A stretch of 64,000 nucleotides of DNA from an uncultured bacterium (GCA_902788415.1 CADAKF010000001.1:9592-73591), one strand, 5' to 3'. Positions 5,678 to 45,224 are shown, counted from the first letter of the stretch. The notes: generated from the sequence alone by a model not told the origin. Program-made: numbers and translations.

Positions 5678-7210
5678 TTAGGCCGCCGCCGTCGCCTGCC
5701 ACCAGGCGAAGCCGCCGAGCGCCAGAAGGACAAGCACGAGAAGTGCGAGCCAGACCTTCGCCATCGGATCCGGTGCGCACTTCGTGAACCCGCGCGCCCG
5801 CTTCATCGAGAAGCGCATCGGACGGTTGATCGCCCAGCCGCAGGCGTTGAGGATTACGCCGAGGTCACGCTTGCGGAGCTTGAACCACGCAAGGATCATG
5901 CTCGGCACTGAGACGATCATCACGAGCGCCACAAGCGCCACGCCAATCTTCCACGCCGGCATCGACGAGATGGCCGCCATGAGCGACGCCGCCGCCGCAC
6001 CGACCATGCCGATGCCGATGCCGATCGCCGCCACCGAACTCGCCATCGCCGCGCCGCCGGCCTGCGTCGACTCCGTGCCCTTCTGGACGGATCCCGTCGC
6101 CTTGGACTGCTTGTCGCTGATGAACTTCTTCACCATGCCCGCGATGCCGTCGCCGATCTTCTTCCACGGCGCCCAGAACGCCTCCTCGAGCGAGACCTGG
6201 TTCTCGACCACCTTGGTGATGACCGCCTCCCAGTCCTTGCCGTCACGGTCGTAGAAGACACCGTTGCGGCCGACGTAAAGCGTCCCCACCTTGCCGGCCG
6301 TCACGACCGCGCAGATGAGGCGCTCCGCCTTCTCGGACGGACGCGAGAGCTTCAAGTAGATGACGCAGCAGTTCGACTTCTCCACGAGCGCAGAATGTGC
6401 CGCCTCGCTGGCGACATGGAAACAAAGGTTCATCTCGCGCGCGTCAATGCGGAGAACGCCGTTCTGGAAAATCGCCGTATCACTCTTGTAGAGGCGGTCC
6501 ATCGTGACGTAGTTCTCGAGAAGCTCGCCGAGATGCAGCTTGTAGCGGAGGAAACGCTCCTCCTCCACGAGATCGTCCTTCGAACCGGGGCTCATCACCG
6601 GCTTCGCCGCAACCCACTCCCGATACTGCGCGAACTTCGCCTTCACGGCCTTCCACTCCATGCGGGAAAGGCAGTCCTTGCCCTCGCCGAGAATCGGTTT
6701 GACGCACTTCTCAGCAAAATCGAGGATCGCCTCAAGGTACTTTGGGTTCAGATGCTCTTTGAGGGGCAACACCTTATCCGGCTCCTCTGTGACGAGCGGC
6801 ATATCCTCTGGAGGCGTAAAGAAGTCATCGACCGTCTTCTCAATCGCTGCAAGCGACGCCTCGGCCGCCGCGGTCGCATCTCCGAGGATAGCGACCTCGG
6901 GCGTCTTGCCTTTTTGCTCCCACTCAGTCCTCGCGGCCTTCTCAAGCTCGGACGGCTCCGCCTTGTCGAGTTCGGCCTGGCGTTTCAGAACATCCGCAAG
7001 TTTCTTCGCGTCCTCCTCGGACGGACGGGCGAGGTCGTCGAGCGAAACACCCTTCGACTTCAAGTACTCGAGGGCTGCCTGAACCTCCGGCGAGCGCACG
7101 CGCCCGTCGCCGTCCGTGTCCATAAGCTGCAATGTCCGAAGGTCAAACCTCACACCCGTCGTCGGACACGCAATTGCATACCACTGCTTCAAATCTTTGC
7201 TAATCGTCAT
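5678..7210 (-). CDS. Hypothetical membrane protein with N-terminal EF-hand-like Ca-binding loop; first gene of the pseudopilin operon
   Basis: DTDGDGRVRSPE matches the 12-residue EF-hand loop (DxDxDG...E); about 380-aa soluble N-domain; 3-4 C-terminal TM helices (IGIGIGMVGAAAASLMAAI..., VALVALVMIVSV..., VWLALLVLVLLALGGF). No recognisable Gsp family. Confidence 0.5.
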   Translation of the reverse strand: MTISKDLKQWYAIACPTTGVRFDLRTLQLMDTDGDGRVRSPEVQAALEYLKSKGVSLDDLARPSEEDAKKLADVLKRQAELDKAEPSELEKAARTEWEQKGKTPEVAILGDATAAAEASLAAIEKTVDDFFTPPEDMPLVTEEPDKVLPLKEHLNPKYLEAILDFAEKCVKPILGEGKDCLSRMEWKAVKAKFAQYREWVAAKPVMSPGSKDDLVEEERFLRYKLHLGELLENYVTMDRLYKSDTAIFQNGVLRIDAREMNLCFHVASEAAHSALVEKSNCCVIYLKLSRPSEKAERLICAVVTAGKVGTLYVGRNGVFYDRDGKDWEAVITKVVENQVSLEEAFWAPWKKIGDGIAGMVKKFISDKQSKATGSVQKGTESTQAGGAAMASSVAAIGIGIGMVGAAAASLMAAISSMPAWKIGVALVALVMIVSVPSMILAWFKLRKRDLGVILNACGWAINRPMRFSMKRARGFTKCAPDPMAKVWLALLVLVLLALGGFAWWQATAAA

Positions 7211-27099: not shown

Positions 27100-29151
27100 T
27101 TATGAACCCCGCGAGAGCAGTTCCCTGAGCCTCGCCTCATCGATGACTTCAGTACCGAGCTTGCGTGCCTTCTCGGTCTTCGTCGCACCCGTGTTCTCGC
27201 CGGCGATGAGATAGCGCGTCTTCGAGGTGACCGCGCTCTGCACGATGCCGCCCGCCGCCTCGATGAGTTTCGCGTATTCGCCGCGGGGCCGTGACAGGGT
27301 TCCCGTGAGGACGCAGCCCATGCCGACCAGCGGTCCCTCGGTCCTCACTTCCGCCGGCTTCTCGGACTTCGGATCAATCCCGAGTTCCGCCATCCGCGCC
27401 AGGAACCGCTTTCCGTACTCGCCCTCGAAGAACCCCAGCACCGCCTTCGCCGCCTCGACCTTGATCTGCAGAATCTGGCGATCCTTGCCCTTCTTCGCAT
27501 CATTCGCGATGACGTTCCGGAGCACCGCCGAATCGACAAGGTCGGACATCTTCCCGTGCTCCGCCGCAATGTCCTTCGCGACGGTCACGCCCACGTTCGG
27601 AATCCCCATCGCAAAGAGCCAGCGATGAAGCGGCAACGATCTCGCCGCCGCAAGCGCGTCCATCACAGTCTGCGCGTTCTTACCGAAGCGGCGCCCCGAA
27701 ATCTCCACGGCGTAGAGGTCAACGACCCGCATCGAAAAGAGGTCAAGCGGATCGGCGACCAGCTTCTGCCCGACGAGCGCGTCCACGACCGTCTCGCCAA
27801 GTGCACGGATGTCGAGCGCGTTGCGCGAGGCGAAATGCTCGATCCGTCGCGAGAGCTGCGCCGGACACGCCGGGTTCACGCACCGCATCGCGACCTCGCC
27901 CTCCGCACGGACAACTTCGCCGCCACAGACGGGACATGTCCGCGGCATTTCGAAAACCTTCTCCTCGCCCGTCCGCTTCTCGGGGATGACCGAATCAATC
28001 GCCGGAATGACGTCCCCCGCCTTCACCAGCCACACGTGGTCACCGACGCGGATGTCCTGCCGTGCGATCTGGTCCGCGTTATGCAGCGTCGCCCGCGCGA
28101 TGACGGACCCCGCAAGTTCCGTTGGCCTCAATTCCGCGACCGGCGTCAGGATCCCCGTTCGTCCCACCTGCACGGTGATTGACTCGACAACCGTCTCCGC
28201 CCGCTCCGGCGCGTACTTGTACGCCCGCGCCCACCTCGGCCCGTGCGCCGTCGTGCCGAGAACATCATAGAACCTGCGCTCGTTGATCTTGATGACCGCG
28301 CCGTCGATCTCGAAACGAAAAGAATGCCGCCGCTCCTGCAGGTCGTCGATCGCCGCAAAGACCTCGTCCATCGTCCCACACGACTTCGACCACGGCGCCA
28401 CCGGAAAGCCCCACGCGCGGAACGCCGCAATCATCTCCGAATGCGAAGCGAACCCGTCGCATCCGACACCGCCCGCGTTGTAGATAACAACATCCAGGGG
28501 ACGCTCCGCCGTCACTCTCGCGTCCTGCTGCTTCAAGGACCCCGCACAGGCATTGCGCGGATTCGCGAACTCCTCCAGCCCCGCGGCAGCCTGCCGCTTG
28601 TTAAGCTCCACGAACCCCTCGCGTGTCATGTACGCCTCACCGCGCACCTCTAGCGTCTTTGGCGCCGTCGGCGGCAGCACCTGGGGAATTGTCTTGATTG
28701 TCCGCGCATTCGCCGTAATGTCATCCCCTACGCGCCCATTCCCGCGCGTCGCCGCCCGGACGAGAATCCCGTTCTCGTAACGGAGCGACAGCGACACACC
28801 GTCGATCTTCGGCTCGACCATGTACGTGAAGCCGTCCGCCTCCTTGCGGACCATCGTGTCGAAGTCGGCGAGCTCCTCCTTCGAGTGCGTCTTGTCGAGG
28901 GACTGCATCGGCGGCTCGTGCGCGACCTTGGCGAAGCCCTCGCTGACGCCGCCCGCGACGTTCCTGACGGGCGAGTCAGCCGTCGCGAACTCGGGATTCT
29001 CCTTCTCGAGCCGGAGAAGCTCCGCCTCCCACATGTCATAGTCGCGATCGCCGACCGTCGGCTGCGCGAGGTCGTAGTAGTCGCGGTTGGCCTTCTCAAT
29101 AAGCCCCCGCAGTTCCGCAATGCGCTTCTCGATCGATGACTTGTCCGTCAT
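27100..29151 (-). CDS. ligA: NAD-dependent DNA ligase
   Basis: KIDGVSLSL adenylation motif (KxDG), four-Cys zinc finger, HhH and BRCT C-terminus. Confidence 0.95.
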   Translation of the reverse strand: MTDKSSIEKRIAELRGLIEKANRDYYDLAQPTVGDRDYDMWEAELLRLEKENPEFATADSPVRNVAGGVSEGFAKVAHEPPMQSLDKTHSKEELADFDTMVRKEADGFTYMVEPKIDGVSLSLRYENGILVRAATRGNGRVGDDITANARTIKTIPQVLPPTAPKTLEVRGEAYMTREGFVELNKRQAAAGLEEFANPRNACAGSLKQQDARVTAERPLDVVIYNAGGVGCDGFASHSEMIAAFRAWGFPVAPWSKSCGTMDEVFAAIDDLQERRHSFRFEIDGAVIKINERRFYDVLGTTAHGPRWARAYKYAPERAETVVESITVQVGRTGILTPVAELRPTELAGSVIARATLHNADQIARQDIRVGDHVWLVKAGDVIPAIDSVIPEKRTGEEKVFEMPRTCPVCGGEVVRAEGEVAMRCVNPACPAQLSRRIEHFASRNALDIRALGETVVDALVGQKLVADPLDLFSMRVVDLYAVEISGRRFGKNAQTVMDALAAARSLPLHRWLFAMGIPNVGVTVAKDIAAEHGKMSDLVDSAVLRNVIANDAKKGKDRQILQIKVEAAKAVLGFFEGEYGKRFLARMAELGIDPKSEKPAEVRTEGPLVGMGCVLTGTLSRPRGEYAKLIEAAGGIVQSAVTSKTRYLIAGENTGATKTEKARKLGTEVIDEARLRELLSRGS

Positions 29152-41032: not shown

Positions 41033-41036
<4 letters not shown>
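40380..41036 (-). CDS. Hypothetical protein (possible concanavalin-like/DUF1961 fold)
   Basis: 218-aa ORF tightly packed between ileS and lysA. Confidence 0.45.
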
Positions 41037-44221
<3,185 letters not shown>

Positions 44222-44246: not shown

Positions 44247-44265
44247 TTTTGGTATTATACCAAAA
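44247..44265. promoter_or_regulatory. 19-bp perfect palindrome TTTTGGTATTATACCAAAA containing an extended -10 (TGgTATAAT on the minus strand) upstream of ileS
   Basis: Seen directly in the ileS/tRNA divergent intergenic region; a second TGGTATACT motif at about 44279-44287 faces the tRNA. Confidence 0.4.
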
Positions 44266-44301
44266 AAGCCGCAGAATATGGTATACTACGCCCGTTTTGC
44301 C

Positions 44302-44387
44302 GCCGGGGTGGCACAGTGGTTGACTGCGCCTGATTTGTAATCAGGATCCGCAAGGACGCGTCGGTTCGAATCCGACCCTCGGCTCCA
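44302..44387 (+). tRNA. Atypical tRNA: anticodon UGU (Thr by anticodon) on a class-II scaffold with a long variable arm
   Basis: Hand fold: acceptor GCCGGGG/CCTCGGC; 3-bp D-stem; anticodon stem CCTGA/TCAGG with loop TTTGTAA; 14-nt variable arm ATCC-GCAA-GGACGC; T-arm GTCGG-TTCGAAT-CCGAC; U73; encoded CCA; 86 nt. Confidence 0.6.
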
Positions 44388-44390
44388 GTT

Positions 44391-45224
44391 TCAGCGCTCG
44401 CTGCGGAGCGCGGGATCGAGGCGGTCGCGCAAGACGTCCGCCAGATGGTTGAAGACCAGCACAAGAAGGAAAATCGCCGCGGTCGTGAACGTCATCTCCC
44501 ACCAGACGCCCTGCCAGAGCCGAAGCCGCGCGTTGTTGATCATCACACCCCAGCTCGGCTCGCCCTGCACGCCAATGCCGAGAAACGAGATGAACACCTC
44601 CGTCGAAACGGCGGACGGAAATCGAATCGAGAACTGGATGAGGATGATGTGCGCCACATTCGGCAGAATGTGCCGGAACATGATTCGAAGATGCGAGTAC
44701 CCGAGCATCCGCGCCGCCTGCACATAGGCGCGATCCCTGTGTTTCATCACCTCTGCGCGGATCGTGCGGCATGTCCCGACCCAGGTCGTAAGCCCGATGC
44801 CGAGATAGATACCAAGAAGCCCCTGCCCGACGACAAGCGAAATCGCCAGCACGAAGAGAAGCCCCGGCATCGACGCGACGGTCGCGCAGAGCCAGACAAC
44901 GAGCGAGTCGACCTTGCCGCCGAAATAGCCACCCAAAAGTCCGAGAAACACCCCGAGCGGAATCGCGATGAGCGAGGTGACGATGCCGACGTGAAACGCG
45001 ATGCGCGTTCCCTGCACAAGCCGGAGCGCCACGTCCCGCCCGAGGTTGTCCGTCCCGCACCAGTGCGCCGCGGACGGCGGCTCGTAGCGATTCGTCGCAT
45101 CGACGACATTGTACGTCGGCGTGACGTCCTGGAACTTCGCGATGCGGTACTGCACCTCGCCAAACGCCGCCGCGGCGGCATACGCCGCCAGCACAATGAG
45201 GCAGATCTTTGTCGACAGCTTCAC
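44391..45224 (-). CDS. ABC transporter permease, Opp/Dpp 'C' subunit family
   Basis: N-terminal TM plus WCGTDNLGRD motif and EAA-like loop; no cognate ATPase or SBP gene in the window. Confidence 0.8.
   Translation of the reverse strand: MKLSTKICLIVLAAYAAAAAFGEVQYRIAKFQDVTPTYNVVDATNRYEPPSAAHWCGTDNLGRDVALRLVQGTRIAFHVGIVTSLIAIPLGVFLGLLGGYFGGKVDSLVVWLCATVASMPGLLFVLAISLVVGQGLLGIYLGIGLTTWVGTCRTIRAEVMKHRDRAYVQAARMLGYSHLRIMFRHILPNVAHIILIQFSIRFPSAVSTEVFISFLGIGVQGEPSWGVMINNARLRLWQGVWWEMTFTTAAIFLLVLVFNHLADVLRDRLDPALRSER

Follow-up and report, generated by a model that had tools for sequence, protein, structure and literature searches.

Textbooks and current reviews list only the leucine, serine and tyrosine transfer RNAs (tRNAs), together with that for selenocysteine (Sec), as bacterial tRNAs whose variable arm is long. 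Bacterial tRNA-Ser, tRNA-Tyr and tRNA-Leu combine a D stem of 3 base pairs (bp) with an additional stem-loop that separates the anticodon arm from the T arm, and tRNA-Ser and tRNA-Tyr have a D loop laid out as A14 G15 Y G18 G19 U U G A. The canonical bacterial tRNA-Thr(UGU), encoded by thrU in Escherichia coli, is of class I, with a 4-bp D stem, a GCUCAGU-GGUAGAGC D arm and a variable loop of 5 nucleotides (nt); its anticodon loop is YUUGUAA with A37, its acceptor begins with G1-C72 and C2-G71, its T arm is canonical, and its codon ACA means threonine. Class II shapes bearing anticodons other than those of Leu, Ser and Tyr are described for the nematode nev-tRNAs (PMC3333845), which are eukaryotic and which the title of that paper presents as decoding an alternative genetic code for leucine, and for the bacterial allo-tRNAs (PMC5389517), whose acceptor/T branches are 8/4 or 9/3 and for which a role as serine acceptors or suppressors is predicted. 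Here we describe an 86-nt gene at positions 44302-44387 (plus strand) of a 64,000-nt stretch of DNA from an uncultured bacterium (GCA_902788415.1, CADAKF010000001.1:9592-73591; hereafter the window), in which the Thr anticodon, acceptor and discriminator are joined to the long-arm body plan. A literature search brought up no account of a class II tRNA-Thr in bacteria or phages, which does not prove that there is none; the family to which the gene belongs has long been present in public records, those of T5-like phages included, annotated as plain tRNA-Thr, and is an under-described structural variant.

ARAGORN calls the gene tRNA-Thr(tgt), 44302-44387 (+), and Rfam model RF00005 matches it completely (model 1-71) at 58.1 bits (E 5.9e-10; curated gathering threshold 29 bits), treating about nine surplus nucleotides as an insertion in the variable region. 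The acceptor strands GCCGGGG (44302-44308) and CCUCGGC (44377-44383) form 7 bp, including a single G-U whose U comes from the 3' strand, and provide the Thr-type pairs G1-C72 and C2-G71. After U8 and G9 follows the D arm GCA(C)-AGUGGUUGA-(C)UGC (44311-44327), with a stem of three pairs (G10-C25, C11-G24, A12-U23), a C13/C22 mismatch and a 9-nt loop of Ser/Tyr type with G18 G19 (11 nt when positions 13 and 22 are included). The anticodon arm CCUGA-UUUGUAA-UCAGG (44329-44345) presents UGU at 44336-44338, next to A37, a placement on which ARAGORN and Rfam agree. The 14-nt variable region (44346-44359) consists of an A, the hairpin UCC-GCAA-GGA (stem 44347-44349/44354-44356, GNRA loop 44350-44353) and CGC ending in C48, and is followed by the canonical T arm GUCGG-UUCGAAU-CCGAC (44360-44376; also placed by Rfam), which gives a 7/5 acceptor/T branch, by the discriminator U73 (44384) and by an encoded CCA (44385-44387). 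The hairpin is retained in the minimum-free-energy fold. An earlier note on this DNA, made from the same letters, had described an 86-nt class-II-like fold with a 3-bp D stem and a 14-nt GNRA-looped arm, a UGU anticodon and a U discriminator, and in all these details it agrees with the gene. The tRNA thus departs from class I architecture (4-bp D stem, 4-5-nt variable loop) in its D stem, its Ser/Tyr-type D loop and its hairpin-bearing variable region, while its arm is as short as that of tRNA-Tyr and much shorter than that of tRNA-Ser. The class I shape is habitual for tRNA-Thr and is no known determinant for threonyl-tRNA synthetase (ThrRS).

Threonine identity resides in acceptor-stem pairs and the anticodon (PMC9976931), and the window tRNA carries the Thr-type marks G1-C72, C2-G71, G35, U36 and A37. 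We consider the gene to be, with good probability, a functional tRNA-Thr(UGU) on a class-II-like body that is charged by ThrRS. By this account an extended −10 promoter of its own would drive transcription, RNase P and 3' processing would trim the transcript, and ThrRS would join it to threonine through G1-C72, C2-G71, G35 and U36, as the established identity rules of that enzyme predict; it would then decode ACA, which comparative codon analysis shows to mean Thr, and probably ACG and ACU too by wobble of a modified U34. The other long-arm tRNAs are marked differently. In bacterial tRNA-Ser, G1-C72 and G2-C71 are conserved and G73 contributes (PMC9976931); the window tRNA has C2-G71 instead of G2-C71, U73 instead of G73, and a 3-bp arm. 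With respect to tRNA-Leu and tRNA-Tyr, it has U73 rather than A73, an anticodon, UGU, that lacks the G34 U35 of Tyr, and the D loop AGUGGUUGA rather than the Leu-type AAUUGGUAGA. Because A73 is a major identity element for both leucyl-tRNA synthetase (LeuRS) and tyrosyl-tRNA synthetase (TyrRS), the presence of U73 argues against charging by either. The 8/4, 9/3 or 8/5 branch of allo-tRNAs and tRNA-Sec-like molecules (PMC5389517) is absent as well, the 7-bp acceptor and 5-bp T stem being paired in 19 of 19 homologues. Since the branch is 7/5 and both acceptor and codon meaning agree with the anticodon, no recoding is implied.

The meaning of ACA was examined by comparison with orthologues. ACA is rare, accounting for 51 of the 951 Thr-box codons in the window (~5%), as against 70% for ACG. 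In codon-aligned orthologues from eight related loci it is matched by Thr codons in 45 of 66 cases (ACG 19, ACC 14, ACA 10, ACT 2) and by Ser codons in 3, an exchange profile the same as those of ACG, ACC and ACT; the control codon TCA is matched by Ser codons in 47 of 65 cases. This codon-pair test was added because a column test on the window's LigA (27100-29151, minus strand), set in an alignment of 150 diverse representatives that are 38-62% identical to it, is too small by itself. There, residue 151 (ACA, in an RTI motif) occupies a column in which 91% of 148 diverse homologues have Thr and 0% have Ser, and two further of the four LigA ACA codons are uninformative (the fourth is weighed below). 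In the isoleucyl-tRNA synthetase (IleRS) encoded beside the tRNA, residue 604 (ACA) is Thr in all three Protein Data Bank IleRS alignments shown, all annotated as cytoplasmic-type, and is an invariant Thr among Kiritimatiellia orthologues. From these alignments, ACA reads as a threonine codon in this clade, the tests giving the meaning of the codon and not which tRNA reads it; low-level ambiguity at ACA may occur.

The gene belongs with other long-arm tRNA-Thr(UGU) genes in a family that occurs on Kiritimatiellia, Eremiobacterota and Acetobacteraceae chromosomes and in many phage tRNA arrays, those of T5-like phages among them. Members have a GCY acceptor, a UG-GC..AxxGG(U/C)..A..GC D arm with a 3-bp stem, a YUUGUAA loop, a variable region of at least 11 nt and a canonical T arm, and the window tRNA shows every one of these features of the T5-like phage type. 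The pattern scan covered one genome per GTDB species plus assemblies, and its counts are lower bounds on an incomplete taxonomic distribution. Among the matches listed, the same layout occurs at ~40 Eremiobacterota/Vulcanimicrobiota loci (acceptor mostly GCCGACG, U73) and at ~11 loci of Acetobacteraceae and other Alphaproteobacteria (acceptor GCUGGGG, A73).

Covariation was analyzed in an ungapped alignment of 19 distinct 83-nt members. All 437 of 437 pair cells hold standard pairs, 14 of the 23 pairs change on both sides, none of 500 shuffles reaches the observed pairing and no slid register comes near it. All five helices covary, the extra arm included: the acceptor is 100% paired, with four invariant pairs (G1-C72, C2-G71 and G4-C69 among them) and three, pairs 3, 5 and 6, that change on both sides; D-stem pair 12:23 occurs as AU, GC and UA; five of five anticodon-stem pairs covary; and so, across phyla, do three of three pairs of the variable hairpin (CG/UA, CG/UA/GC and CG/GC/AU). 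The extra arm is a selected helix rather than junk. The earlier note had suggested a tRNA-Thr that acquired a mini-repeat in its variable region; its Thr identity is supported, while the insertion is not, the arm being no local mini-repeat and its covarying design being shared with other phyla and with phages. The 12-mer of the hairpin has two look-alikes with one mismatch elsewhere in the window, where chance would give 0.49 matches, and the mini-repeat idea was rejected because such look-alikes are few and the arm is common to several phyla. The arm is accompanied by a Ser/Tyr-type D arm in the same tRNA body.

Within its own lineage the tRNA is nearly invariant. The window IleRS, which has an exact match on two ENA metagenome contigs, has as its nearest named relative that of Candidatus Colisoma equi (Kiritimatiellia, Planctomycetes-Verrucomicrobia-Chlamydiae (PVC) group), at 91%. 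By the pattern scan, a tRNA body identical to the window's occurs at no fewer than 18 gut Kiritimatiellia loci, variation being confined to the hairpin loop (GCAA, UUCG or CUCG) and one base 3' of the hairpin; the loop is UUCG in locus L003 and CUCG in locus L090, with the hairpin stem unchanged in both. Two relatives of ~90% IleRS identity hold the tRNA at the same place, one of them differing only by the GCAA-to-UUCG tetraloop and one base 3' of the hairpin. CCA is not encoded at 5 of 18 related loci, and therefore a CCA-adding enzyme can supply it. Because this 83-nt RNA gene is invariant across genomes in which identity to the IleRS of the window is no higher than 78-90%, strong purifying selection on the tRNA is indicated. 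Upstream, an extended −10-like box, TGGTATACT, lies at 44279-44287 (+), 14 nt from the gene, where the earlier note had placed it; a TG-n-TATA(C/A)T box ~13-16 nt upstream is kept in 17 of 17 related loci that hold upstream sequence, even though their flanks are unrelated, which marks it as a putative promoter. A simple scan for sigma-70 −35/−10 consensus pairs found no promoter pair for the tRNA. The unusual architecture for this anticodon, the C13/C22 mismatch and the rarity of ACA could all be laid to a decaying or non-functional gene or an annotation artefact, and degeneracy was among the options of the earlier note. With its helices perfect, its T loop and G18 G19 canonical, its sequence invariant across species with diverged flanks, its promoter box conserved and compensatory changes spread across phyla, decay is scarcely credible, and that option is rejected.

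The genomic position of the gene is of narrower distribution. An IleRS-alignment scan of metagenome contigs returned 80 loci at 47-81% identity, and at 0 of these 80 does a tRNA-Thr adjoin IleRS or a transitional form between class I and class II appear; relatives at 69-81% IleRS identity are without any tRNA at the IleRS-side spot. The adjacency of tRNA and IleRS is thus limited to the closest clade, and an attempt at positional proof of a switch from class I to class II beside IleRS failed. Among the Kiritimatiellia-clade loci examined, no second UGU tRNA was seen and no other tRNA-Thr (GGU or CGU) was found, so the acceptor comparison was made in Eremiobacterota only. In 13 genomes of that phylum, the acceptor of the long-arm tRNA is 75-76% identical to that of the same genome's class I tRNA-Thr(GGU), with the same discriminator in 13 of 13, versus 38-40% and 0 of 13 for tRNA-Tyr. 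The D and T arms show the reverse, being 74% and 85% identical to those of the neighbouring tRNA-Tyr versus 63% and 57% to those of class I tRNA-Thr(GGU). At Eremiobacterota loci with a Tyr-Gly(UCC)(-Thr(GGU)) cluster, 0.1-5 kb at most separates the cluster from the long-arm gene, which is in locus L026 co-directional with tRNA-Tyr and 73 nt from it, and no class I UGU gene occurs at such loci. The corresponding E. coli arrangement is thrU-tyrU-glyT-thrT; the Eremiobacterota long-arm gene is thus in the thrU neighbourhood.

The family is abundant in phages. A pattern scan of IMG/VR yielded at least 120 stretches, with at least 119 loci bearing a tRNA-Thr(UGU) whose variable region spans 11-18 nt; roughly half could form a hairpin of at least 3 bp, and most lie in tRNA arrays, with a median of nine tRNAs per locus. 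GenBank holds ~99 genomes of T5-like phages (Demerecviridae) with an 87-nt version, which most annotated records call tRNA-Thr, and this version shares with the window tRNA the 7/5 branch, the 3-bp D stem, a 9-nt AxxGGUUGA D loop and a tetraloop hairpin in a 14-15-nt variable region. The tRNA of Salmonella phage 5 (AJ604531.1) is 74% identical to the window's overall and has the very same anticodon arm, CCUGA-UUUGUAA-UCAGG; it differs in lying in a tRNA array and in its A73, its GCUGGGU acceptor and its arm GGA-GUAA-UCC, whereas the window gene is chromosomal, solitary, adjoins IleRS and has U73. According to a note in the phage 5 record, this tRNA recognizes codon ACA and, with its anticodon changed to CUA, is an effective amber suppressor, which shows that this body undergoes processing and charging and is accepted by the ribosomes of E. 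coli. Phage T5 itself was considered as a carrier of the long-arm form, wrongly: NC_005859 has a 75-nt class I tRNA-Thr(UGU) (locus L327, 4668-4742) in the slot orthologous to that of phage 5 (L325, 601-687), the upstream flank being identical and the tRNA-Thr(UGU) genes unrelated. By the GenBank notes on the two genes, the class I tRNA-Thr of T5 is not convertible to a suppressor and only the long-arm form is.

Several points weigh against the reading of the gene as a ThrRS-charged tRNA-Thr(UGU). The window tRNA is 73-83% identical to family members (82% to viral locus L208, the closest relative outside Kiritimatiellia among the matches listed, 78% to Eremiobacterota, 76% to Acetobacteraceae and 74% to phage 5) versus 63-67% to other tRNAs (Kiritimatiellia-type tRNA-Ser 63%, tRNA-Tyr 65%, class I tRNA-Thr 65-67%), a difference to which the search pattern itself contributed by imposing part of the similarity. 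A canonical class I tRNA-Thr(UGU) may coexist elsewhere in the genome, in which case the gene would be an accessory copy. LigA codon 154, an ACA, lies in a variable S/G/A/T column with 51% Ser and 8% Thr among the 148 homologues; it is the sole datum that leans to Ser and, the column being variable, is read as uninformative. Because the CUA form of the phage 5 tRNA suppresses while the class I tRNA of T5 does not, the long-arm body can be charged without a Thr anticodon, possibly by another synthetase. Finally, a long arm with G73 or U73 is regarded as compatible with seryl-tRNA synthetase (SerRS) by Mukai et al. (PMC5389517).

It is mainly this chargeability without a Thr anticodon that keeps mischarging in view, that is, a tRNA charged wholly or partly by SerRS drawn to the extra arm, with ACA read as Ser or as a Thr/Ser mixture. 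The class II architecture and Ser/Tyr-type D loop would suit such a molecule, as would U73 if it acts as it is taken to in allo-tRNAs (PMC5389517), and true Ser bodies with a UGU anticodon do exist in other organisms. One, in Rhodobacteraceae UBA10424 (L055, 4159-4248), has a GGAGGCG..G73-CCA body with an 18-nt variable region; another, in a Nitriliruptoraceae metagenome-assembled genome (MAG; L086, JBKGZF010000084.1), is a near-duplicate (6472-6560) that lies ~530 nt beyond its parent tRNA-Ser(UGA) (5852-5940) and has a damaged first pair. These fit the suggestion in the earlier note of a Ser-derived tRNA that reads ACA as Ser. For the window gene the suggestion fails: C2-G71 replaces the conserved bacterial Ser pair G2-C71, U73 stands for G73, ACA exchanges with Thr 45 times and with Ser 3 times among 66 and occupies Thr-invariant sites, so that Ser at ACA is unsupported as the primary meaning, and in Eremiobacterota the acceptor follows the lineage's own tRNA-Thr. 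The IleRS-alignment scan did turn up a normal tRNA-Ser(UGA) of Kiritimatiellia type, in a relative with 78% IleRS identity (GGAGGGU..G73, 18-nt variable region, stem read as ~6 bp, against the 3-bp arm here); because that relative keeps it, the UGU gene did not arise as a mutant that took the place of tRNA-Ser(UGA). A UGU anticodon with a modified U34 would also read ACG, and Ser charging would be very costly because ACG makes up 70% of Thr codons. Mistranslation by this tRNA is accordingly rated very improbable.

Another account holds the gene to be an accessory copy, horizontally acquired and ultimately derived from phage, that serves as a back-up resisting tRNA-Thr toxins or defence nucleases while a canonical class I UGU tRNA is kept elsewhere. 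The phage evidence speaks for it: the long-arm loci in IMG/VR are mostly in tRNA arrays, at least five phage loci there hold both long and short forms of tRNA-Thr(UGU), the nearest relative outside Kiritimatiellia among the matches listed is viral, and the phage 5 and Acetobacteraceae long-arm tRNAs are 83% identical. So too do the absence of any tRNA from this spot in relatives at 69-81% IleRS identity and the range of documented attackers of tRNA-Thr, which comprises PARIS AriB, HepS, FaRel2 and a T6SS (type VI secretion system) toxin. Set against these are the fixation of an identical gene in ~18 species-level genomes and several genomic contexts, its housekeeping neighbours (IleRS) with no phage genes adjoining, the position of the Eremiobacterota gene in the thrU neighbourhood with no class I UGU gene nearby, and the lack of a second UGU tRNA in the clade loci examined. 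On balance we think the accessory role unlikely, and continue to prefer a functional tRNA-Thr(UGU) that ThrRS charges.

A bolder conjecture is that the long-arm tRNA-Thr(UGU) is a mobile, phage-spread "armoured" tRNA that replaced canonical thrU in gut Kiritimatiellia, Eremiobacterota and Acetobacteraceae. The hairpin and remodelled D arm would keep anticodon-stem and anticodon-loop nucleases and other tRNA-Thr toxins off the molecule, while ThrRS, EF-Tu and the ribosome would still accept it. In the host's tRNA-Thr(UGU), the cut made by PARIS AriB falls between positions 40 and 41. The extra hairpin emerges beside the 3' strand of the anticodon stem, adjoining that cut site. Rescue from PARIS/AriB toxicity by the tRNA-Thr(UGU) of T5 has been reported (PMC12409363), and is no evidence for the long-arm scaffold because the T5 tRNA is class I. 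Since tRNA-Thr is a toxin target and phages carry the family in abundance, the hypothesis of a scaffold that protects and that spread horizontally is attractive, though doubtful at present; if true, it would make this the fourth class II isoacceptor family in bacteria.

ThrRS is a class II synthetase and, in most accounts, faces its tRNA on the variable-loop side. With the long-arm tRNA, it must tolerate an extra helix, and other marks must exclude SerRS, LeuRS and TyrRS. The body plans of tRNAs are evidently swappable with the code unchanged, and for annotation the lesson is that a class II shape with a Thr anticodon is no evidence of recoding. Toxins directed at phages or at rival bacteria frequently target tRNA-Thr, and the long-arm scaffold therefore suggests a way, open to testing, of obtaining tRNAs that withstand nucleases. 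It could also serve tRNA engineering as a natural body of orthogonal appearance, since a CUA version of the phage 5 tRNA is already on record as an efficient amber suppressor.

A number of related oddities were noted in other genomes. Two Gemmatimonadaceae MAGs (L014, 1510-1597; L070, 4532-4616) carry long-arm tRNAs with a GGU (Thr) anticodon, GCC-type acceptors and a Leu-type D loop (AACUGGUAA/G); because of these, class-II-like Thr tRNAs are not restricted to the UGU isoacceptor. In a Betaproteobacteria MAG (L017, WRNU01000160.1, 268-1608), 15 tRNA genes are packed into 1.4 kb with body plans swapped, several tRNA-Leu being short (75-78 nt) and tRNA-Ile(UAU) and tRNA-Thr(UGU) long (91 and 86 nt); the array resembles the mobile tRNA arrays of mycobacteria, with their short-loop tRNA-Leu (PMC6582537). 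Bodies resembling tRNA-Leu, with A73 and an anticodon loop YUUGUAA that presents a Thr anticodon, occur in a Limibaculum MAG (L038, 6175-6261), Paceibacterota (L053, 3747-3833) and Saccharibacteria (L106, 1202-1288), have the D loops AAUUGGUAG / AACUGGUAC, and could be mis-registered Leu tRNAs or genuine oddities. Archaeal matches to the pattern (L006, L012, L027, L036, L039, L057-L061 and others) are tRNA-Thr genes of Methanothrix, Bathyarchaeia and Woesearchaeota in which the surplus length directly follows the anticodon loop and which ARAGORN in bacterial mode miscalls as Tyr or "???"; they are taken to be intron-containing genes unrelated to the bacterial long-arm family.

In the window, the tRNA sits between the divergent IleRS gene (41033-44221, minus strand) and a convergent gene for an ATP-binding cassette (ABC) transporter permease (44391-45224, minus strand), housekeeping neighbours with nothing phage-like flanking. 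A minus-strand extended −10-like box, TGGTATAAT (44254-44262), lies ~33 nt upstream of the start codon of IleRS. Relatives whose IleRS adjoins the tRNA conserve it as ggtattatacc, and with the TGGTATACT box of the tRNA it forms a putative divergent promoter pair. The IleRS is eukaryote-like, its best solved relatives being annotated as cytoplasmic IleRS (up to 959 bits), and at about residues 210-250 it carries an insertion specific to its lineage, which fails to align with the solved cytoplasmic-type relatives.

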